Source: Haloferax volcanii DS2 (GTDB taxonomy: Archaea > Halobacteriota > Halobacteria > Halobacteriales > Haloferacaceae). Taken from it: a stretch of 32,000 nucleotides of DNA. The notes under the pieces were generated by a model. It searched no databases and was not told where the DNA came from. It saw only the letters and a program-made list of their open reading frames with translations. The position numbers and the translations under genes are program-made. This document shows positions 22,809 through 32,000 of the stretch, one piece after another; the stretch's first letter is position 1; each line of letters starts with the position of its first letter. The stretch lies in NCBI RefSeq assembly GCF_000025685.1, contig NC_013967.1:1950001-1982000 (forward strand), written 5' to 3'.

Positions 22809-22827
22809 TTTCCAACACGCATGGAAC
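22809..22827. promoter_or_regulatory. TTTCCA-N7-TGGAAC inverted repeat (site A)
   Basis: tttcca at 22809-22814, a 7-nt spacer, then tggaac at 22822-22827. It shares the extended left arm GTTTCCAAC with site B. Confidence 0.4.
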
Positions 22828-22988: not shown

Positions 22989-23007
22989 TTTCCAACTGAA
23001 GTGGAAA
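22989..23007. promoter_or_regulatory. TTTCCA-N7-TGGAAA inverted repeat (site B)
   Basis: tttcca at 22989-22994, a 7-nt spacer, then tggaaa at 23002-23007. The arms are perfect 6-bp reverse complements. Confidence 0.45.
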
Positions 23008-23307
23008 TGTCCGTTTCGACTGCCTTTATTCGTAATCGTGGCATTATAACGGGAAAGGCAAGCGAACTATCCACTCGCTCGCGACGCAGGAGACCGTTTG
23101 GAAAGAGGTTCCTCGTGAGCGTTTACGACACACCGCTTACCCCCGGGATGGAGACAATGAGCACTATCCGAAACGGTGCTGATGAAACGGCCAACGACCC
23201 GATACAGAGACGCTTTCTTGACCAGGCCTCGCTTCTGCAATAGTGACCGTTCCGAATCGTGTCCTGAACCCAAATATTTAATCAGGTTGGAAATGGTGTG
23301 TTATCGT

Positions 23308-24072
23308 ATGGCAACCAACAAACCACGAACGCTGGAGGCGGTTGAACGGTCTCTCGAACTCATCGAGGCACTGGTCGAGGAGGACTCGCTAGGGGTGACG
23401 GAACTCTCGGAGCGAACTGGACTTCCAACGAGCACCGTCTACGTGCACCTGCAGACGCTTCGGGAGAACGACTACGTCGTCAAGGAAGGGAGCAAGTACC
23501 GACTCTCGCTTCAGTTCCTCCACTACGGGGGCAAGATTCGAGAACGGCTTCCGGTCTACCGACATGGACGGAAGGTCGTCCACGACCTGGCCAAAGAGAC
23601 TGGCGAACTGGTCAATCTCGCGATTGAGGAGAACGGCCGCGGTGTCGTGATATTCATGGCACGCGGCGACAACGCTGCTGTCGACCTCGCACCCGTTGGG
23701 AAGCACTCGTACCTCCATCGACCGGCTTTCGGGCGGGCCATCCTCTCGTGTTTCTCCGACGAGGAGGTGAACGATATCGTCGACAAATGGGGGCTTCGAG
23801 CGGTCACCGAAAACACCATCCATACGCGTGAGGCGCTCTTCGAGGAACTCGAAGCGACCCGAGAGCGCGGGTACGCGATCGAGCGAGACGAAGGAGACGT
23901 CGGAATCAGCTGTGTCGGCGCGCCGATTCAGGACATCGAAGGAAACCCCGTTGGCGCGATCAGCGTGACCGTCCCCTCGAACAAACTTCGGGACGACCGC
24001 GTCGAAGAAGAACTCTCACACAAGATCCTCAATGGAACCAACATCATCGAACTCAAGATAGAACACGCATAA
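23308..24072 (+). CDS. IclR-family transcriptional regulator (copy 3)
   Basis: Starts MATNKPRTLEAVERSLELIEAL. wHTH is TSTVYVHLQTLRENDYV. Effector-domain blocks are RGYAIERDE, GISCVGAPI and GAISVTVPSNK. A TATA-like aaatattta lies at 23272-23280, and a TGGAAAT half site (23288-23294) sits between it and the ATG. Confidence 0.9.
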   Translation: MATNKPRTLEAVERSLELIEALVEEDSLGVTELSERTGLPTSTVYVHLQTLRENDYVVKEGSKYRLSLQFLHYGGKIRERLPVYRHGRKVVHDLAKETGELVNLAIEENGRGVVIFMARGDNAAVDLAPVGKHSYLHRPAFGRAILSCFSDEEVNDIVDKWGLRAVTENTIHTREALFEELEATRERGYAIERDEGDVGISCVGAPIQDIEGNPVGAISVTVPSNKLRDDRVEEELSHKILNGTNIIELKIEHA

Positions 24073-24085
24073 CCGACGAGACACT

Positions 24086-24106
24086 ATTTCCACGCTGGTT
24101 GGAAAT
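24086..24106. promoter_or_regulatory. ATTTCCA-N7-TGGAAAT inverted repeat (site C) in the convergent gap between IclR-3 and the pdxA-like gene
   Basis: The arms are perfect 7-bp reverse complements, 24086-24092 and 24100-24106. The repeat starts 14 nt after the IclR-3 stop. Confidence 0.45.
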
Positions 24107-24141: not shown

Positions 24142-25149
24142 TCACGCTCGCTCGATGGCGACGCGAGCGGCGGTTCGAATCGCGTCGACCATACTGGACT
24201 CGGAGGCGATTCCCTGTCCCGCAATATCGAACGCCGTCCCGTGGTCAACACTCGTTCTGATGATCGGCAGTCCGACCGTCATGTTGACGCCGCTGACCGT
24301 GTCGGTGCTGTCGAAGCCGAGCATCTTGATCGGGATATGTCCCTGGTCGTGGTACATCGAGACGACGCAGTCGTACGCGCCAGCGGCTGCCTTGACGTAG
24401 ACGGTGTCCGGCGGAATGGGCCCTTCGGCGTCGATACCAGCCTCACGGGCCTGTTCGACGGCCGGTTCGATGGCGTCGTCGTCTTCCGTCCCGAGAAGTC
24501 CCCCCTCGCCGGCGTGAGGATTCAAGCCAGCGACGGCGATCGTCGGGTCGTCGATTCCCAGGTCGTGTAACCCCTGATTAGTGACAGTGATGGTGTCGAG
24601 GACGTTCTCGGTTGTCACGAGGTCGCACGCCTCGCGAAGCGGGACGTGTGTGCTCACGTGCGTGACGCGAAGCCCCCCCTCGATAAGCATCATGGAATAG
24701 TTATCTGTCTCGGTGTACGCCGCGAGCATCCCGGTGTGGCCCGCGAATTCGCTTCCCGCCTGGGCTGTCGCTTGCTTGTGAATCGGGGCCGTCGCGATGG
24801 CGTCGATGTCGCCTACGATGGCGAGTTCGATCGCGCGTTCGATGTACTCAAGCGAGGCGCGGCCGTACGCCTCGTCGATTTCGCCGTAGGTCAGCGACGC
24901 GACGTTGTCGAGGTCGAGTACGAACAGCGTCGATGGGTCGGATCGAACGTCTGCGACGGACTCGACCGCTTCGACCGACAGGTCGCTATCACACTGGTCG
25001 ACTGCGTGCCGAATCACGTCCGCGTCGCCGATGACCACGAGGCTTGCGTCCTCGGTCACCTCGGGTGCTGCTTCGACGATTATTTCGCTTCCGATGCCAC
25101 CGGGGTCACCCATCGTCACGCCGACGAGAGGTCGCTTTACTGCTGTCAT
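24142..25149 (-). CDS. pdxA: PdxA-family NAD-dependent 4-phospho-hydroxyacid dehydrogenase (decarboxylating; PdxA2-like)
   Basis: Motifs VGVTMGDPGGIGSEI, GLNPHAGEGG, MYHDQGHIPIK and RTSVDHGTAFDIAG. The preferred start MTAVKRPL at 25149 overlaps the upstream stop as TGATG (25147-25151). Confidence 0.9.
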   Translation of the reverse strand: MTAVKRPLVGVTMGDPGGIGSEIIVEAAPEVTEDASLVVIGDADVIRHAVDQCDSDLSVEAVESVADVRSDPSTLFVLDLDNVASLTYGEIDEAYGRASLEYIERAIELAIVGDIDAIATAPIHKQATAQAGSEFAGHTGMLAAYTETDNYSMMLIEGGLRVTHVSTHVPLREACDLVTTENVLDTITVTNQGLHDLGIDDPTIAVAGLNPHAGEGGLLGTEDDDAIEPAVEQAREAGIDAEGPIPPDTVYVKAAAGAYDCVVSMYHDQGHIPIKMLGFDSTDTVSGVNMTVGLPIIRTSVDHGTAFDIAGQGIASESSMVDAIRTAARVAIERA

Positions 25150-26387
25150 CACGGCGTACCGATGAAGTCGAGGCAATTAACTATTGTCGTCGGGTCACCG
25201 AACGACCCCGCCTTGGTCACGAGGAGGGTCTCGTCGGCCGCTCCACCGCGAATTCGGGTGAGTGGAATGCCGTCGTCGAGTTCGATTCCCGTCAGTTCGA
25301 GTGACTCCGCGTCGAGTTCGTCGAGTACCGCGATGGTCGTCGAGCCACCAGTCGTGAACAGACCGGCCAACGGCCGTGTCTCGTGGACTCCGCGGACGGT
25401 CGCACGCAACGTCGTCGCGATTCGATCTTTGACGGCGTGCTCGTCGAGTCCGAGCGCGTCCGCGTTCCGGGTCACTTCGTCGACGGCGCGAGAAGACGGA
25501 GCCGACGTGACGATGGCGAATCCGTGAGCGCGCTGCGCGGCGAGAACCGGGCCGACAGCTTCGGACGCCGCTTCCGTTGGACGCTCGAGCATCGTCTCGG
25601 GGTCCAGCGCAACGATCGCTTGGTCCGGAACCCGCGCGAGTTGCCCGAACGAAGTCTCGCTGACGCTCCCGACCACGCCGAGGACCGATTGGCCCCCACT
25701 TACTGCGGTCGAACGCGACAACGCCCCCGCGAGTCCGCCACTCCCCGCATAGGCGACGGTGGCTGTGAGTCGGCTGGCGGCGTCGGCAAGCGACCGAAGG
25801 TGGGTGTGAGTTGTGGCGTCGGCGACGACGACTACCGGCCCGTCGCGGTTGCGGTCTATCTCGGCGAGTTTCGACCGGACGTGTCCTGTACCCTTGGTTA
25901 CGACGTCCAGCGGGAGTGTTTCGACGGGATACGCGAGCGATGAGAGCAGCTCGACCACCGACGACGTTGCAGGCAGGTTCTCTGAGTCGGTAAGCGTCTC
26001 GACCACGGGGTCACCGTCGACCAACTGGACGCCGTCTTCGGTCGTCCGCCCGTTACTGGGAAACGCCGGTGCAAGCAACAGGATGTCGGGCGTCGCGGCG
26101 TCGAGCACCGCCGCCAGTTCGTCGGTGACGTTCCCGCGGAGCGTGGAGTCGAGCTTGTTGTACAGAAGCGTGGTGTCGTGTTGTGACACGGCGGCGCGAA
26201 CCGTTTCGTACGCCGCTGCCGGTGGTGCTTCCCGTGTCTCCGTATCGACGACGAGGACGTCGCAGCTCGTCGGTGCGCTTGGGTCGAACACCACGTTCGT
26301 CCGATACCCACGGCTGGCGAACTGGCTCCCGGTGTCGTTCGCTCCGGTGATATCGTCTGCAATAACAACTGCGTTCAACTCGGTCAT
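25149..26387 (-). CDS. four-carbon acid-sugar kinase family protein (DUF1537; OtnK/DtnK/DenK-like)
   Basis: 412 aa. The N-terminal signature is AVVIADDITGANDTGSQF, followed by a C-terminal nucleotide-binding half. The gene is translationally coupled to the pdxA-like gene. Confidence 0.9.
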   Translation of the reverse strand: MTELNAVVIADDITGANDTGSQFASRGYRTNVVFDPSAPTSCDVLVVDTETREAPPAAAYETVRAAVSQHDTTLLYNKLDSTLRGNVTDELAAVLDAATPDILLLAPAFPSNGRTTEDGVQLVDGDPVVETLTDSENLPATSSVVELLSSLAYPVETLPLDVVTKGTGHVRSKLAEIDRNRDGPVVVVADATTHTHLRSLADAASRLTATVAYAGSGGLAGALSRSTAVSGGQSVLGVVGSVSETSFGQLARVPDQAIVALDPETMLERPTEAASEAVGPVLAAQRAHGFAIVTSAPSSRAVDEVTRNADALGLDEHAVKDRIATTLRATVRGVHETRPLAGLFTTGGSTTIAVLDELDAESLELTGIELDDGIPLTRIRGGAADETLLVTKAGSFGDPTTIVNCLDFIGTP

Positions 26388-26441
26388 ACCGTCTGAGTCT
26401 TGGTTGCCAGCCTATGAATGTTCGGCCGTGCCATGATAAAT

Positions 26442-26483
26442 GTCAACAAGGATTAGAAATGTATTTACATTACAGTCAAGAAG
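26442..26483 (+). promoter_or_regulatory. TATA-overlapping palindrome AATGTAttTACATT flanked by direct repeats GTCAAcAAG / GTCAAgAAG
   Basis: The palindrome is at 26458-26471, about 22-35 nt upstream of the ATG at 26493. The direct repeats are at 26442-26450 and 26475-26483, with starts 33 nt apart. Confidence 0.45.
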
Positions 26484-26492
26484 CGTAATTCC

Positions 26493-27920
26493 ATGGCATC
26501 GAACGAATGCCGAGACAGTGATAGGACCGCTACGAGACGCCGAACCGTCCTCAAGGCCGTGGGGGGCTCAGCAGTCGCAGGGCTTGCAGGCTGCGTTGGC
26601 GGTGGTGGGGGAGACGGCTCGGGCTCAGGCTCGGGTTCGGGATCCGGCGACGGAACCACCACGGGGACCGTGAACGAAAACGGCTGGCCTGACTACAGCG
26701 GGCGCGAGATGCGCGTTGTCACCGACGAGTGTTCGGACGTGTTCAAGCGCGTCTGGGAAGACGCGTTCGCCGAGTTCGAAAACAAGACGGGCGCGTCCGT
26801 CACCCTCGAATGCGGCGCAGAGGGACAGAGCATTCAAGAGCGTATCATTCAGCTCATTCAGTCCGGCAACCCGCCGGAGCTGTTCCCGACATCGGTGACG
26901 CAATCGACGCAACTCCAGAACCAAGGGACGCTCGCTCCGATGACCGACTTAGTCGAGACGGTCACGGACCGATTAGGCATGCCCCACGAGCGGTCGTTCC
27001 TCGAACGCGACGGCGAACACTACACGATTCCCTTCTTCGCGATTCCGTACCTGCAGTGGTACCGAGAGGACATCGCCGAGTCGAAACCAGACTCCTGGGA
27101 GAACATGGTTGGCTGGATGGAGGAAGCCAGTGGTTCGGACGAGGTGACCGACGCGACGCTGCTTCCGTGGTCGACGCACTACTGTAGCGAACTCGTCGCT
27201 CAGTGTTTCCTCCGAAGTAACGGTGCGAACATGGCGACTCGAAACGATGACGGTGAGGTTGTGGTCTCGATCGACCAGGGAGAGAACCGCGAGCGCTGGA
27301 TCGAAATGCTCGAATTCCGCAAGCAACTCCAGCCCTACACCGGCCCCGGTTCGGACATCGGCTGTGAAGAGCGGATCAACGCACTTCATACTGAGTCGTC
27401 GGCGCATACGACGTACGGTGGTGCGCGGCCGAAGATTCAGTCCATCGAACGCGAGCGTGACTTCCACGAGCATATTCGCGCCGCTCCGATCCCGGGGCCA
27501 GACGGACCGGGGAAGTTCTTCGGCGTCATCAAGTCCATCTGCTCGTTCCAGGGGTCGAACACGGACATGGCCAAGACGTTCCTCGATCAGTTCATCTTCC
27601 AGCCGGAGTACTACGAGCGCTACATCAACATTCAGAACGCGCCGCTGTACCCGAAACAGAAAGAGGAGATCGACATGCGCGAGAAGCTTCCGGACTCCTA
27701 CACCGACGCGGATATCGAGGCGTGGAAGTCGGTGACCGACGCGATTCCACCGGCACACGAGACGAGTCCGCCGAACCCGTACGTCGATTCCATCTTCACG
27801 ACTCGGCCGGGCTCGACTGCCATCTCACTCGTGATCAGCGAGGACATGGACCCGGGCAAGGCAGTCGACCAAGTCGCAGCGAAGGCTCGCGAGTCGCTGA
27901 ACCAGGCGAAGGGGCCATGA
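26493..27920 (+). CDS. ABC transporter extracellular solute-binding lipoprotein (family 1, carbohydrate type)
   Basis: Tat motif TRRRTVLK, lipobox LAGC and a G/S/T linker. It is a 475-aa SBP_bac_1-like body and is followed in the same direction by two carbohydrate-type permease genes. Confidence 0.88.
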   Translation: MASNECRDSDRTATRRRTVLKAVGGSAVAGLAGCVGGGGGDGSGSGSGSGSGDGTTTGTVNENGWPDYSGREMRVVTDECSDVFKRVWEDAFAEFENKTGASVTLECGAEGQSIQERIIQLIQSGNPPELFPTSVTQSTQLQNQGTLAPMTDLVETVTDRLGMPHERSFLERDGEHYTIPFFAIPYLQWYREDIAESKPDSWENMVGWMEEASGSDEVTDATLLPWSTHYCSELVAQCFLRSNGANMATRNDDGEVVVSIDQGENRERWIEMLEFRKQLQPYTGPGSDIGCEERINALHTESSAHTTYGGARPKIQSIERERDFHEHIRAAPIPGPDGPGKFFGVIKSICSFQGSNTDMAKTFLDQFIFQPEYYERYINIQNAPLYPKQKEEIDMREKLPDSYTDADIEAWKSVTDAIPPAHETSPPNPYVDSIFTTRPGSTAISLVISEDMDPGKAVDQVAAKARESLNQAKGP

Positions 27921-28053
27921 GAATACATGCGTAGACACATCGGCCACAGGCACGCTCACCTCGCCCTGTCGAGGAACCCGTAACCAGACCAGCAGACCAC
28001 CTCCAAGTACACTCGAATCCACACATCGACTCACATACGACCTCAACAAACAG

Positions 28054-28989
28054 ATGAAACACGAACTACACGGCGTAAATCCACCGCTTATCACCCCGCT
28101 CGACGCCGACGGTCAGTTGGACGAAGACGCGTTCAGAGATGAGATTCGCTACCATCTCGATGCTGGCGTCTCAGGCGTCGTCGTCGGCGGAAGCACCGGC
28201 GAAGGGATGCGAATGACCGACGACCAACTCAAGCAACTCTACGACGTCGCGGTCGACGAAGTGGACGGCGACGTTCCCGTGGTCGCGGGAGTCATCGCAC
28301 GACAGACGCGCGAGGCCACCGTAAAAGCGGAACTGGCTCGTGACGCGGGTGCGGACTTCATCATGGCGATGCCACCGACGGGGTACGTCGGCTCGCACAT
28401 GGCCGACAACGACTCGATCCGCGACTACTACCGCGCAATTGCGGATGTTTCCGAGTTACCAATCGTCATCTACGACGTCATGTCGTTGCTCGACCTCGAC
28501 GCGGAACTCGTCGGTGACCTCGTCCGGGACATCCCGGAAGTCGTCGGCATCAAAGTCAGCAGCACGCTCGGCAATCTGACGCACTATCTCCGAGCCATCG
28601 GCGATGACGGCTTCGTGCTTGGCGGGATGAGCATCGGCCAGTTCCCAACGTACACATTGGGTGTCAACGGCGGAATCGTGGGTATCAGTAGTGTCTGTCC
28701 ACGCATCTCCGTCCAAATCTGGGAAGCCACACAACGTGGCGATTACGACCGTGCCCGAGACCTTCATTTCGCGCTTGTCCCGCTCATCCGCGCCGCGATG
28801 GAGAACTACGAATCGAACTTCCCCGCTGGCGAGAAAACGGCGATCGACGTGCTCGGACGCGATGCGGGCTGTCTCTTCCATCCCTTCGACGGAGTCGAAG
28901 ACGGTGACGAGAAGCGCGCGGCCATTGAGGACGCAGTCTCACAGATGCACGACCGAGGAACGAGAGAAATCGTCCACGCCGACGATTAG
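28054..28989 (+). CDS. DapA/DHDPS-family class-I (pyruvate-dependent) aldolase or dehydratase
   Basis: Motifs LITPLDADGQLD, VVVGGSTGEG, PIVIYDV, and the Schiff-base Lys context VVGIKVSS. Confidence 0.9.
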   Translation: MKHELHGVNPPLITPLDADGQLDEDAFRDEIRYHLDAGVSGVVVGGSTGEGMRMTDDQLKQLYDVAVDEVDGDVPVVAGVIARQTREATVKAELARDAGADFIMAMPPTGYVGSHMADNDSIRDYYRAIADVSELPIVIYDVMSLLDLDAELVGDLVRDIPEVVGIKVSSTLGNLTHYLRAIGDDGFVLGGMSIGQFPTYTLGVNGGIVGISSVCPRISVQIWEATQRGDYDRARDLHFALVPLIRAAMENYESNFPAGEKTAIDVLGRDAGCLFHPFDGVEDGDEKRAAIEDAVSQMHDRGTREIVHADD

Positions 28990-29249
28990 GACGGAGAAGC
29001 TGGCCAGCACCGACCGGTCTGTCCGTCAGACCTCGAAACAGCCTGCCAATCGGATGGACTCTTCCAGCCACCCGTCCGCTCTTTTCGATAGCCGCCCCCC
29101 TTGAGACGAACGCGCCGACAATCATCGAGCGGACACTCGTCGTCGCTGGCGTCGGTTCTGCCGTGGGAGTTCCAGTTCTCGAGTCCCGCTCGCAGCACGA
29201 CCGCAAAAACAGATCTCGGCTCGGTTCGATTCGCGCCGAGCGTTCGAGG

Positions 29250-30047
29250 TTACCAGTCGACCCAGTCTCGGTCGGCGATTCGAAGCTCGCGGTTGATATC
29301 GTCGATACGGTCGAGTTCCTCAGCGGTGAGTTCGACGTCCGTGGCTTCGAGATTCCCTCGAATGTGCGCCTCGCTCGACGCCTTCGGGATGGGATTAACG
29401 CCGTCTTTCGAGAGCAGCCACGCGATGGCGACCTGTGCCTCGCTGAGGCCGTTTTCACGGGCGATGTCGGTGATCTCCGGAATCTCGAAGACCCTCCCGC
29501 GGGCGAGCGGGGAGTAGGCGACGACTTCGATGTCGTGACCGCGACAGTACTCGAGGAGGTCCGGTTGCGGGAGGAGTGGATGAAGCTCGACCTGGTTGAC
29601 GTCGATTGGGGCATCGCAGGCCGCCTGTGCCTCGTCCAGCAGTTCGGGAGTGAAATTACTCACGCCGAGATGCCGAATCAGCCCCTCGTCTCTAAGCTCC
29701 GAAAACGCGCCGAGCGTGTCGACGGCGTCGTAGTCCTTCGCTGGCCAGTGAACGTAGAGGATGTCGAGATAGTCCACGCCAAGACGTTCGAGACTCTCGT
29801 CGACTGCGTCGTGGACACGGTCAGACGCGAGGTCCCCCGGCCAGAGCTTCGTCCCAAGGGTAATCTCCTCTCGGTCGACGTCCGCTCGTTCGATTCCATC
29901 GCCCACGTAGGCTTCGTTTTCATACAGCTGTGCGGTATCGATGTGTCGGTAGCCCATCTCTAGTGCCGTTCGTACGCTTTCGGCACAGGCCTCCGGATCA
30001 GTGTTCTGCCACGTCCCGAAGCCTACTCTTGGCTCGCTAAATACCAT
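29250..30047 (-). CDS. aldo/keto reductase (2,5-diketo-D-gluconate reductase-like AKR)
   Basis: Motifs VGFGTWQ, GYRHIDTAQLYENE, LGTKLWP, YVHWP, GVSNF, IPKASS. A TATA-like attattatagg (minus-strand sense) lies about 25-36 nt upstream. Confidence 0.92.
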   Translation of the reverse strand: MVFSEPRVGFGTWQNTDPEACAESVRTALEMGYRHIDTAQLYENEAYVGDGIERADVDREEITLGTKLWPGDLASDRVHDAVDESLERLGVDYLDILYVHWPAKDYDAVDTLGAFSELRDEGLIRHLGVSNFTPELLDEAQAACDAPIDVNQVELHPLLPQPDLLEYCRGHDIEVVAYSPLARGRVFEIPEITDIARENGLSEAQVAIAWLLSKDGVNPIPKASSEAHIRGNLEATDVELTAEELDRIDDINRELRIADRDWVDW

Positions 30048-30206
30048 GATCGTCAGTACGTTCTCGGGTGATCCTATAATAATCTATGGGGGGACGCGAG
30101 AAGACAGTGGATCGGGTGACTGGAGTCTTCGTTCGTCTCTCGAACAGCTGTGACTGTACTGATGGGAAGGTTTTTACCGTTGGTTCATGAAGAATTGGCA
30201 CGTTCC

Positions 30207-31151
30207 ATGAGTACAATCAACAAGCATGGCTCCCGGGCTCGAGAGTTACGAGACGAGGTGTTCGAGTTCCTCTCAAAAAAGAAGGTATTGACCGCGCTGA
30301 CGATTCTCCCGCCGATGCTACTCTTCACGTTCGTGAATCTCGTTCCGATTATCGGCGTCATCGGCGCGAGTTTCTTCAACATCAACGCCTTCTCGAACGA
30401 GTGGCAGTGGATCGGGACTGCGAACTTCGAGTCGCTCCTGACGAGCGACTCGTTCTACGATGCGCTCAACCGGTCGGTGATATACGCGGGTGGCTCGGTC
30501 GTCATTCAGGTGATTTTCGGGACGACTCTCGCGCTATTGCTCAACCGGTCGTTCAAGTTCGTGAATATCGCGCGCACGTTCGCAATTCTCCCGTACCTCA
30601 TCCCGAACGCCGTCATCGGCTTCATGGCGCTCTGGATGCTCAATTCGCAGTGGGGAATCGTCAACCAGCTCGCCGTCCAGATCGGTCTCACCCAAGGGTA
30701 CGTGTCGTTCTTCGGAGACCAAGGATCGGCGATGCTCGCGGCGATTCTCACGAGTAGTTGGAAAGACTCTATCTTCGTCACGGTGATGGTGCTCGCTCGA
30801 CTGCAGGCTATCCCCGAGAGCTTCTATGAGGCGGCGAAGATGTCCGGTGCGACGGCCTACCAGCGATTCCGAGATATCACCCTGCCGAACCTGAAGGGTG
30901 TGTTCTTTATCGTGCTGCTGCTGCGTGCGGTGTGGATGTTCAACACCTTCGACTACATCTGGGTCCTCACGCAAGGAGGACCGCGAGGAGCGACGACGAC
31001 CGCACCCATCTACGCGTACAACATCGCCTTCGGGACGAGTCGGCTCGGCATCGCCGCGGCCGTTTCGACCGTGCTGTTCCTCGTCTTGTTGGTCGCGGCA
31101 GTGTTGTACTTCCGGATCTTCGAGCCGTCTGAGGAGGTGCGTGCAGAATGA
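30207..31151 (+). CDS. ABC transporter permease (carbohydrate, MalF/UgpA-like)
   Basis: 314 aa from MSTINKHGSR, with six hydrophobic segments and the EAA-type loop YEAAKMSGATAYQRFRDITLP. A TATA-like gtttttac lies about 30 nt upstream of 30207, which I prefer over the GTG at 30150. Confidence 0.9.
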   Translation: MSTINKHGSRARELRDEVFEFLSKKKVLTALTILPPMLLFTFVNLVPIIGVIGASFFNINAFSNEWQWIGTANFESLLTSDSFYDALNRSVIYAGGSVVIQVIFGTTLALLLNRSFKFVNIARTFAILPYLIPNAVIGFMALWMLNSQWGIVNQLAVQIGLTQGYVSFFGDQGSAMLAAILTSSWKDSIFVTVMVLARLQAIPESFYEAAKMSGATAYQRFRDITLPNLKGVFFIVLLLRAVWMFNTFDYIWVLTQGGPRGATTTAPIYAYNIAFGTSRLGIAAAVSTVLFLVLLVAAVLYFRIFEPSEEVRAE

Positions 31152-32000
31152 GCATTCGTAACGACATCGGACGCAAGTGGTCGAACGTCAAACAGCGGAC
31201 CGTGGACAAGCCGTGGAACCCGCTGACGCACCTCTCGCACCAGGGTCGGTCGACGGGGTGGAACTTGACGCTGAACGCCCTGTTGGTGCTGCAGCTGTTC
31301 GTCGTCATCTTCCCCATCTTCTGGATGGTCAGTACGGCGCTACGGCCGACGGACATGATTTACAACGTTCCGCAAACGCTGCTACCGCAGATATTCTCCG
31401 TCGAGAACTTCGTCAACACGTTCGAGGGGACGAACTTCCCGACGTACTTCAAAAACAGCATGATTCTCTCGGTGGGCGTCGTCGTGGTCACGACATCGAT
31501 GTCGACGCTGGCTGGCTACGGGCTCACGCGCATCGACATCCCACACAAGAAGACGTTCGCGAGAATCATTCTTTTCGGGTACATGTTCCCGCAGATTCTG
31601 CTCGCGATCCCGATGTTCATCTTCTGGAGTCGCATCGGCCTCATCAACAGCCACCTCGGCCTCATCTTGGCGGTTACCGCGACCGCCTTGCCGTTCGGCA
31701 TCTGGTTGATGTGGAAGTTCTTCCAGAACGTTCCCATCTCGCTCGAAGAGTCCGCCCAGATGGCGGGCGCGTCGCCGTTCCGGGCGTTCTACGAGATCGC
31801 ACTACCGATGGCGAAACCCGGTGTCATCGCGGTAGCCATCTTCTCGTATGCAACGGCGTGGGGTGCGTACACGATTCCCCGAATCATCATGCCGACGAGT
31901 GAAAACTGGCCGCTCACCGTGGGTATCCACATGTTCACGATTCAGAAACAGACTCTCTGGGGAGAGGTCATGGCCGCGAGCGTGATGATGGTAATCCCGG
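31148..32000 (+). CDS. ABC transporter permease 2 (carbohydrate, MalG/UgpE-like), 3'-truncated by the window end
   Basis: Not in the ORF track because there is no stop inside the window. The ATG at 31148 overlaps the upstream TGA (ATGA). My translation is MSIRNDIGRKWSN...FPIFWMVSTALRP...EESAQMAGASPFRAFYEIALPMAKPG..., which contains an EAA loop, and the frame stays open to 32000. Confidence 0.85.
   Translation, partial: MSIRNDIGRKWSNVKQRTVDKPWNPLTHLSHQGRSTGWNLTLNALLVLQLFVVIFPIFWMVSTALRPTDMIYNVPQTLLPQIFSVENFVNTFEGTNFPTYFKNSMILSVGVVVVTTSMSTLAGYGLTRIDIPHKKTFARIILFGYMFPQILLAIPMFIFWSRIGLINSHLGLILAVTATALPFGIWLMWKFFQNVPISLEESAQMAGASPFRAFYEIALPMAKPGVIAVAIFSYATAWGAYTIPRIIMPTSENWPLTVGIHMFTIQKQTLWGEVMAASVMMVIP

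Follow-up and report, generated by a model that had tools for sequence, protein, structure and literature searches.

A conserved Haloferax gene cluster with a sialidase-fold protein, a pyruvate lyase and a DUF1537 kinase/PdxA pair: a possible catabolic pathway for an acidic 3-deoxy-2-keto sugar

Introduction

In a 32,000-nucleotide stretch of the Haloferax volcanii DS2 genome (NC_013967.1, positions 1,950,001 to 1,982,000; hereafter the window), the genes of a sugar-type ATP-binding cassette (ABC) importer are interrupted by two enzyme genes, one of them on the opposite strand, and lie next to an IclR-family regulator gene and a divergent gene pair for a DUF1537 kinase and a PdxA-family protein. 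Do these genes form one pathway, and if so, for which compound? A first-pass annotation, made from the window alone, had proposed a scheme with two parts: a front end, where a dehydrogenase and a dehydratase encoded past the window turn the imported sugar into a 2-keto-3-deoxy acid, and a back end, in which a dihydrodipicolinate synthase (DHDPS)-family lyase yields pyruvate and a C4 fragment, an aldo-keto reductase (AKR) acts on the aldehyde, and the kinase/PdxA pair leads to dihydroxyacetone phosphate (DHAP).

We propose, with a probability of roughly 0.55, that the twelve genes from the IclR gene to a gene for a sialidase-fold (BNR) protein would constitute one catabolic pathway whose substrate is an acidic 3-deoxy-2-keto sugar, free or within a small conjugate, all functions being deduced from sequence and gene context. 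We favour one pathway because the same roles occur together in a Paenibacillus-like contig (L119), in Cohnella and in an Escherichia coli island; because gene order and strands are fixed in Haloferax and in relatives of ~62-85% identity; because the BNR family of this type (type B) lies near pyruvate aldolases and a Halorarum lyase homolog lies with AKR, PdxA, DUF1537 and IclR genes; because the PdxA is of the PdxA2 type without a vitamin B6 role and the lyase is not DapA; and because the kinase and PdxA genes overlap and have a 105-bp conserved divergent region in common with the binding-protein/lyase operon.

Gene content and proposed pathway

The gene content was established from an open reading frame (ORF) listing together with Pfam and NCBIfam scans (Table 1), and all the genes that the first-pass annotation had named are present on the strands it gave. 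The IclR gene lies just ahead of 24142, where that annotation had begun the cluster, with a TATA-like box upstream of its likely start. The most likely PdxA start overlaps the kinase stop as TGATG, and the two permease genes share a 4-nt ATGA overlap. The split of the importer, earlier put at about 2.3 kb, measures 2,229 bp from the binding-protein stop to the permease-1 start and holds the DHDPS-family gene and the opposite-strand AKR gene. Past 32000, the ATPase gene that had been expected there is present and of the MalK type; the dehydrogenase and dehydratase genes expected with it are encoded neither in the cluster nor in the inspected DNA beyond that point, which has the ATPase, a zinc-ribbon protein and the BNR protein instead. 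The genome has a single BNR_2 gene, and therefore the last gene of the cluster is HVO_2120, named 'sialidase family protein' in an H. volcanii transcriptome paper (PMC12699388); a search for the locus tags of the neighbouring genes yielded no paper. Downstream of it lies a convergent peptide-type ABC system, unrelated to the cluster.

In the proposed pathway, a lipoprotein of the twin-arginine translocation (Tat) type and a CUT1-type ABC system would import the compound, and the cytoplasmic sialidase-fold protein would then free or open the keto-acid, either by ketoside cleavage or by opening of an anhydro or lactone form. The DHDPS-family Schiff-base lyase would split the keto-acid into pyruvate and a carboxylate-bearing aldehyde, the AKR would reduce the aldehyde to a C4 hydroxy acid (a tetronate), the DUF1537 kinase would phosphorylate the tetronate at C4, and the PdxA2-like enzyme would oxidise C3 and remove CO2 to give DHAP. 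Overall, pyruvate, DHAP and CO2 would be formed in a redox-neutral manner with one ATP spent. If the lyase product is reduced and then serves a kinase and a beta-hydroxy-acid oxidative decarboxylase, the aldehyde should already bear a carboxylate; therefore the parent would be a dicarboxylic 2-keto-3-deoxy acid, and with a C4 fragment it would have seven carbons. A heptulosaric acid such as 3-deoxy-D-lyxo-2-heptulosaric acid (Dha) would fit this chemistry: its C4 fragment would be 2,3-dihydroxy-4-oxobutanoate, reduced to D-threonate according to the stereochemistry that we worked out. Dha in particular is no more than a guess, and we found no paper that links it to such an aldolase or to threonate.

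On the comparative evidence, the back end of the earlier scheme probably stands, given the occurrence of the role set in the Paenibacillus-like contig, Cohnella and E. coli, the PdxA2 type of the dehydrogenase and a lyase that is not DapA. The front end is not borne out, as its genes are absent from the DNA inspected. Neither a dehydrogenase nor a dehydratase would be required for a 3-deoxy-2-ulosonic or -ulosaric acid, which has the 2-keto-3-deoxy acid structure from the outset.

Table 1. Features of the cluster. Positions are those of the window unless marked L001 (C1:1970001-1990000); adding 20000 to an L001 coordinate extrapolates the window numbering.
Feature	Position	Strand	Family evidence or remark
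IclR-family regulator	ORF 23176-24072; likely start ATG 23308 (~254 aa)	+	HTH_IclR + IclR_C
PdxA2-like NAD-dependent oxidative decarboxylase, candidate 4-phospho-tetronate dehydrogenase	ORF 24142-25176; likely 24142-25149 (start ATG 25149)	-	PF04166, 362 bits
DUF1537 acid-sugar kinase, candidate tetronate 4-kinase	25149-26387	-	SBD_N (PF07005, 169 bits) + NBD_C (PF17042, 92 bits)
Divergent control region, kinase/PdxA operon versus binding-protein/lyase operon	26388-26492 (105 bp)		conserved blocks
Tat-lipoprotein solute-binding protein, CUT1-type ABC importer	26493-27920	+	SBP_bac_1
Putative DHDPS/NAL-family class I (Schiff-base) pyruvate lyase	28054-28989	+	PF00701, 161 bits
Aldo-keto reductase, DkgB/YvgN-like, candidate reductase of the aldehyde fragment	29250-30047	-	PF00248, 220 bits
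ABC permease 1 (MalF/UgpA-like)	30150-31151	+	BPD_transp_1
ABC permease 2 (MalG/UgpE-like), 306 aa	31148-32068 (L001:11148-12068); stop 68 nt beyond the window end	+	BPD_transp_1
MalK/UgpC-type ATPase	L001:12171-13292, wholly past the window	+	ABC_tran + OB_MalK + TOBE_2
Membrane zinc-ribbon protein, 277 aa	L001:13304-14137 (extrapolated 33304-34137)	+	no family match
Sialidase-fold BNR_2 protein HVO_2120, 385 aa	L001:14201-15358 (extrapolated 34201-35358)	+	BNR_2 and BNR matches

Bacterial counterparts

The roles of the Haloferax cluster recur in three bacterial loci. In L119, genes for an iron-containing alcohol dehydrogenase (Fe-ADH), a regulator, DUF1537, PdxA, DHDPS-family and BNR proteins follow one another on one strand with overlaps or small gaps, and CUT1 permeases come next; its BNR protein is 88% identical to one named Paenibacillus agaridevorans. 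Cohnella caldifontis (L191) carries, again on one strand, permeases, DUF1537, PdxA, a BNR protein of a second type, TerC, a major facilitator superfamily (MFS) transporter, 2-Hacid_dh, Ldh_2, DHDPS, a BNR protein of the Haloferax type and DUF386. The E. coli UTI89 island, located between nagE and glnS, comprises SLC13, DUF386, a sialidase-family gene, TerC, DHDPS and Fe-ADH, and its divergent arm dtnK, a D-threonate 4-phosphate dehydrogenase gene and a DeoR regulator. The island of E. coli B2/extraintestinal pathogenic strains (GR6) and clusters in Sinorhizobium meliloti have been described as a 'pdxA-like cluster' with no substrate given (PMC12928451; Thiaville et al. 2016), and the literature searched named none for it elsewhere.

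Like the Haloferax cluster, the bacterial 'pdxA-like cluster' combines a BNR protein, a DapA-like lyase, an alcohol or aldehyde reductase, a DtnK-like kinase, PdxA2 and a local regulator. The genes themselves, however, differ: compared with the E. coli island, the Haloferax BNR protein belongs to another subfamily (no BLAST match), the lyase is 27% identical, an AKR stands in place of Fe-ADH, a CUT1 ABC system with a Tat lipoprotein in place of SLC13 and IclR in place of DeoR, DUF386 and TerC are absent, and there is an extra membrane zinc-ribbon protein. In pairwise comparison the two BNR subfamilies are at most 27% identical to each other, and the bacterial lyases form one group (39-67% mutual identity) to which the Haloferax lyase is 26-29% identical. 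The reductase is, depending on the locus, an AKR, an Fe-ADH or a 2-Hacid_dh/Ldh_2 protein, which are unrelated families. Measured against the GR6 arrangement (BNR, DapA-like and Fe-ADH genes beside dtnK-pdxA2), the roles are common to both but the genes are not orthologous. That the roles recur while the genes differ suggests selection for function and a shared pathway logic rather than an inherited block. The Haloferax-type cluster, the only archaeal instance of the role set that we found, may be classed as a mosaic form, in Archaea, of a bacterial acid-sugar cluster that is itself uncharacterised; the archaeal mosaic is what is new. A complete haloarchaeal route for a Dha-like 3-deoxy-2-heptulosaric acid, assembled independently from non-orthologous parts and including a cytoplasmic sialidase-fold enzyme other than a canonical sialidase, is conceivable but at present doubtful.

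Conservation and origin of the arrangement

Synteny across Halobacteria, which the first-pass annotation had left to be checked, was examined in 295 genomes and in a second scan of species-representative genomes. The lyase and the BNR protein each occur in just three other genomes of the 295, the same three and all Haloferax, and the cluster was not found in the 291 other Halobacteria sampled; the species-representative scan gave H. chudinovii, H. denitrificans, H. massiliensis and Haloferax sp. Q22 as carriers. The twelve-gene order and the strands are unchanged in five Haloferax species (76-100% protein identity), so the juxtaposition is not one of chance. Metagenome contigs whose proteins are ~62-85% identical have the IclR, PdxA, kinase, binding-protein, lyase, opposite-strand AKR and permease genes in the same order. 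With the order kept in Haloferax and in these relatives, the interrupted importer operon is therefore an old and stable arrangement. The IclR gene adjoins the cluster in all Haloferax copies and in the relatives L010 and L196, and the opposite-strand position of the AKR gene is retained in every copy.

The same two relatives (~70% identity) have an MFS-transporter gene in two pieces between lyase and AKR (L196:7228-8400 and L010:6260-7428); the matching site in Haloferax is a bare 260-bp lyase-AKR spacer (window 28990-29249). It looks as if the MFS gene decayed and was then lost in Haloferax, which hints that lyase, MFS and AKR genes were inserted into the ABC operon as a cassette. A clean insertion site for the cluster was also sought, but five other Haloferax genomes likewise lack the flanking FGGY gene, and the downstream peptide-ABC ATPase gave paralog-level matches of 50-62% only, so that the borders of the island could not be defined.

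Divergence is uneven within the single kinase/PdxA operon: the H. volcanii kinase is 76-77% identical to those of H. chudinovii, H. denitrificans and H. massiliensis (L033-L035), and the overlapping PdxA 91-93%. The zinc-ribbon protein, which has two hydrophobic helices and a C-terminal cysteine ribbon, is present in all Haloferax copies (76-92% identity) and diverges far faster than its neighbours; between H. volcanii and Haloferax sp. Q22 its identity is 76%, compared with 95-100% for the genes on its left side and 94% for both ATPase and BNR. This step in identity suggests a recombination breakpoint within the cluster.

The importer

The import system has the composition of a CUT1-type carbohydrate importer, namely SBP_bac_1, two BPD_transp_1 permeases and a MalK-type ATPase with a TOBE/OB tail, but its components are spread over two or three transcription units, split by the lyase and AKR genes. 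The binding protein carries a twin-arginine signal (RRRTVLK) and an LAGC lipobox, and its lineage is nearly restricted to clusters of this type.

The DHDPS-family lyase

The lyase is a member of the DHDPS/N-acetylneuraminate lyase (NAL) class I superfamily, in which the residues G46-S-T-G-E50, Y140 and K167 are invariant among 17 members of its subfamily. Whether it might be a genuine dihydrodipicolinate synthase had been raised as an objection to the earlier scheme. In DapA, the Arg of the motif Y-N-(I/V)-P-x-R-T binds aspartate semialdehyde. In a pairwise alignment the lyase reads IYDVMSLL against LYNIPGRTG of a bacterial family member and the motif Arg is missing; the consensus of the subfamily at this site is IYDV. 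The protein scores below all NCBIfam equivalog cut-offs, including that for dapA (TIGR00674, 124.8 against 206.15 bits; 124.6 in the genome scan), and the genuine DapA of the genome is encoded elsewhere (C1:1005717-1006568, 337 bits). An identification as DapA was therefore rejected on the score, the missing Arg and the separate DapA gene.

The nearest relatives of the lyase outside this cluster type (45-49% identity) lie in haloarchaeal acid-sugar islands with AKR, short-chain dehydrogenase/reductase (SDR), enolase-superfamily dehydratase and HpcH aldolase genes, a setting that fits a 2-keto-3-deoxy-acid aldolase. A 49%-identical homolog in Halorarum is accompanied by AKR, SDR and enolase-superfamily dehydratase genes and also by PdxA, DUF1537 and IclR. 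An acid-sugar island of this kind is conserved among haloarchaea (L009 from Halorarum halophilum, L038, L040 and L012); the L009-type island has three enolase-superfamily dehydratases, an HpcH aldolase, a 2-hydroxyacid dehydrogenase, AKR, SDR and a DHDPS-family lyase, and further tartrate-dehydrogenase-like Iso_dh genes, an FAD oxidase and Ldh_2.

Members of the DHDPS family also include dehydratase/decarboxylases, and the enzyme could thus be of the KdgD or L-2-keto-3-deoxyarabonate (L-KDA) dehydratase type, converting a keto-deoxy diacid or pentonate to a semialdehyde that would be processed further by the AKR or some other enzyme, with the kinase/PdxA pair serving a different branch. The reaction types are not separable by sequence alone, and the KdgD models (99-106 bits) score not far below those of NanA. 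Nevertheless, we consider this very unlikely, because the KdgD scores are far under their cut-offs of 278-374 bits, the cluster has no aldehyde dehydrogenase, the usual partner of a semialdehyde-forming enzyme, and the recurrent association of a reductase with kinase/PdxA2 in bacteria fits an aldehyde that is reduced, not oxidised.

The sialidase-fold protein

The AlphaFold model of the BNR protein, built with 44 homologs (pLDDT, predicted local distance difference test, 92.6), is a six-bladed propeller of the sialidase type. Its closest solved structure is 5hx0 (Z 35), an uncharacterised Dyadobacter protein (Dfer_1899) for which we found no paper; sialidases of glycoside hydrolase family GH33 follow with Z 30-32, GH93 with 27 and the Dha-hydrolase domain of GH143 with 21. 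The rmsd to solved sialidases is 2.6-3.0 Å over ~305-313 residues, which together with the BNR_2 and BNR matches agrees with a GH33-type propeller with Asp-boxes. The sialidase active-site residues give a mixed picture: in a distant hidden Markov model (HMM) alignment R252 aligns with R246 of Clostridium perfringens NanH, and the tyrosine of the GYPR motif, Y338, is invariant, but the RIP motif and the position of NanH E231 differ (see below). The activity of the protein may possibly be the cleavage of a small ketoside or the opening of an anhydro or lactone ring. Neither the BNR protein nor any of 14 relatives examined has a signal peptide, and it is predicted to be cytoplasmic, whereas bacterial sialidases are usually secreted or surface-located. 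A protein-atlas look-up returned generic 'sialidase family' clusters only; a plasmid search gave matches of at most 36% identity (at most 31% for those spanning most of the protein), and the Rhizobium locus inspected was unrelated.

The neighbours of type B BNR genes were counted in 43 non-Haloferax metagenome loci. Within 8 kb, an HpcH/HpaI aldolase gene is present in 14 of the 43 and a DHDPS-family gene in 4, and among the two genes on each side HpcH/HpaI and DHDPS are the commonest enzyme families; carboxylate carriers of the tripartite ATP-independent periplasmic (TRAP) and tripartite tricarboxylate (TTT) families and ABC systems are also common. One locus (L182:5056-9557), the single pectin-flavoured context for this family, has type B BNR, DHDPS-family, oligogalacturonate-lyase-like (polysaccharide lyase family PL22) and GFO/IDH/MocA genes behind a LacI regulator and a peptide-type ABC importer. 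In Halorussus ruber (L008:9009-11101), a BNR homolog adjoins genes for a CTP_transf_3 cytidylyltransferase, a carbamoyltransferase and a glycosyltransferase. These neighbours point to biosynthesis, not catabolism; the CTP_transf_3 family activates sialic acids and 3-deoxy-D-manno-octulosonic acid (Kdo).

The only enzyme described to release Dha is GH143 of Bacteroides thetaiotaomicron BT1020, acting on rhamnogalacturonan-II with a sialidase-related propeller and a Tyr/Glu pair (PMC6811678). Unlike the Haloferax BNR protein, GH143 is a five-bladed propeller within a large two-domain enzyme, and no catabolism of the freed Dha has been described for it. The fold brings to mind the Nan systems as well, in which a GH33 sialidase, NanA and a transporter occur together: the Haloferax cluster likewise joins a sialidase-fold protein, a class I lyase and a dedicated importer, and the proposed logic is the same, i.e., a 3-deoxy-2-keto acid would be freed and pyruvate then released from it. 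It differs in a cytoplasmic BNR protein that apparently lacks canonical sialidase residues, in having no NanK or NanE, and in the reductase and kinase/PdxA2 pair downstream.

The substrate might accordingly be a monocarboxylic ulosonic acid or its glycoside (Kdo, 2-keto-3-deoxynononic acid, or an acid of the sialic, legionaminic or pseudaminic type derived from glycans of archaea or algae), handled in a Nan-like manner with the AKR acting on the released aldose. The Z scores of 30-32 to sialidases would agree with this, as would the NAL-like GSTGE motif of a lyase without the DapA-type Arg, the CMP-sugar-type cytidylyltransferase beside the Halorussus homolog and the DUF386/NanQ-like gene of the bacterial clusters in Cohnella and E. 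coli. However, the NanA models are matched at only 104.8 against 281 bits (NF003164) and 91.7 against 382 bits (TIGR00683), and no NanK/NanE-type or pentose/hexose follow-up enzyme is encoded. An AKR acting on an aldose would moreover give a polyol, which is not a known type of substrate for DUF1537 kinases or PdxA2, and the bacterial versions use carriers of the dicarboxylate type (SLC13 in E. coli, TTT or TRAP near other BNR members). An ulosonic acid therefore seems a distinctly unlikely substrate.

The kinase/PdxA pair and the aldo-keto reductase

Among solved structures, the PdxA protein is closest to PdxA2/D-threonate 4-phosphate dehydrogenases (2hi1, 275; 4jqp, 274; 6e85, 259 bits; E. 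coli PdxA, 193 bits), and it passes the broad pdxA model TIGR00557 (374.8 against 290 bits). PdxS is present in the genome, PdxJ is absent and there is one PdxA-family gene only; therefore a role of this PdxA in vitamin B6 synthesis is excluded, and the biosynthetic PdxA was rejected as its identity on these grounds and on the PdxA2-type similarity. The best solved relative of the kinase is 4xfm. According to Zhang et al. (2016), as cited in PMC12994016 and PMC7954711, a DUF1537 kinase and PdxA2 convert D-threonate to DHAP and CO2. As in the DtnK and PdxA2 pair, the Haloferax genes are adjacent and overlapping, the kinase has the SBD_N and NBD_C domains, the PdxA is closer to PdxA2 and the expected end product is DHAP. 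They differ in falling below the equivalog cut-offs, in being only 28% (kinase) and 44% (PdxA) identical to the pair of the E. coli island, and in being tied to an ABC importer, lyase, reductase and BNR gene, not to a tetronate permease. The AKR scores 215 bits against the DkgB model (cut-off 327).

One pathway or several units

The following findings weigh against one pathway or against parts of it. The PdxA reaches 306 bits with the D-threonate 4-phosphate dehydrogenase model NF002891, for which the equivalog cut-off is 583, and the best NCBIfam model of the kinase, D-threonate kinase NF047819, gives 238 against 450 bits (3-oxo-tetronate kinase, 104 bits); such sub-equivalog scores do not establish a tetronate specificity for either enzyme. 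In the BNR protein, the N-terminal motif is (S/A)WPF (FSAWPF) and not RIP, so the first Arg of the sialidase triad is seemingly missing, and in the distant HMM alignment an Arg occupies the position of NanH E231, the Glu that partners the nucleophile in sialidases; the protein may thus not be a glycosidase. For Dha, the literature searched documents no source in hypersaline habitats.

Kinase and PdxA genes are adjacent in 19 of 20 other haloarchaeal loci (L013-L032, e.g., L019:9965-15538), likewise in 19 of the 20 without a lyase or BNR gene, and are followed by a ~440-aa LarA-like gene in 13 to 16 of the 20 and accompanied by a GntP permease in 7. Kinase and PdxA can thus function on their own, as a portable tetronate module that ends in DHAP and could be fed from different sources. 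The ~440-aa third protein has faint similarity to the N-terminus of lactate racemase (LarA), and an IclR gene is often nearby; this haloarchaeal set may represent a tetronate operon of its own, possibly including a nickel-pincer epimerase. The lyase, too, occurs without the pair: its relatives in Salinirubellus, a Haloarculaceae metagenome-assembled genome and Halomarina lack kinase and PdxA genes nearby, and three of the four relatives in a type B context have neither within 10 kb.

Nor did the control regions yield a common operator. In the region between the kinase and binding-protein genes, ATGAATGTTCGGCCGT and TTAGAAATGTATTTACATTACA (palindrome over a TATA-like box) show no variation among five Haloferax species, and in the AKR/permease-1 spacer (window 30048-30149) a TATA-like TATAATAAT is conserved at ~27 nt from the start of the AKR gene. 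Control of the divergent promoters by the IclR protein is probable, but the five-species alignments of both divergent regions hold no common palindrome despite their conserved blocks. The motif TTCCA-N7-TGGAA occurs three times (window 22810-22826, 22990-23006 and 24088-24104; 0.09 copies expected by chance), two copies lying in the ~720-bp non-coding stretch 5' of the IclR gene and one just past the IclR stop. It was rejected as a shared IclR operator because it is absent from both divergent promoter regions. Upstream of permease 1, the alignment shows no conserved TATA-like element at the corresponding distance; the permeases may be transcribed from a weak promoter of their own or by read-through antisense to the AKR gene. 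A scan of 27800-30300 for bacterial-type promoters and terminators, ill-suited to archaea, found nothing.

These data could be read as two or three independent units lying side by side: an IclR-controlled tetronate module, in which kinase and PdxA2 serve free D-threonate or D-erythronate; an ABC/BNR/lyase unit that takes a sugar resembling sialic acid or Kdo and passes the product other than pyruvate to enzymes elsewhere; and an AKR that acts alone in detoxification. The portable kinase-PdxA pair, the lyase relatives without it and the lack of a common operator all speak for independent units, as does the fact that AKRs of the DkgB/YvgN type are common general reductases. Against this stands the co-occurrence of five roles, co-directional and tightly packed, in L119, Cohnella and E. 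coli. Furthermore, the cluster has no importer suited to free tetronate, the kinase/PdxA and binding-protein/lyase operons have one conserved divergent promoter region, and the block has stayed intact across ~30% protein divergence. We therefore regard independent units as unlikely and retain one pathway from IclR to BNR as the preferred explanation.

Significance

The literature searched contains no description of the fate of Dha or related ulosaric acids after their release from glycans. If the Dha route is true, it would supply the missing physiological feeder for the D-threonate kinase/PdxA2 pair, and Archaea would have put the pathway together independently, using non-orthologous parts. 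Should the reading prove wrong, there is still a conserved and unexplained association that involves a sialidase-fold protein. Gene deletion is routine in H. volcanii and defined media are available, which makes it a genetically tractable model. Its 12-gene unit is compact, the PdxA-family and BNR genes are each the only one of their kind, and one IclR gene adjoins the cluster, so that clean tests should be possible. With a lyase lineage and a reductase family other than those of the bacteria, the Haloferax cluster also offers a natural experiment to tell the essential parts of the pathway from the others.

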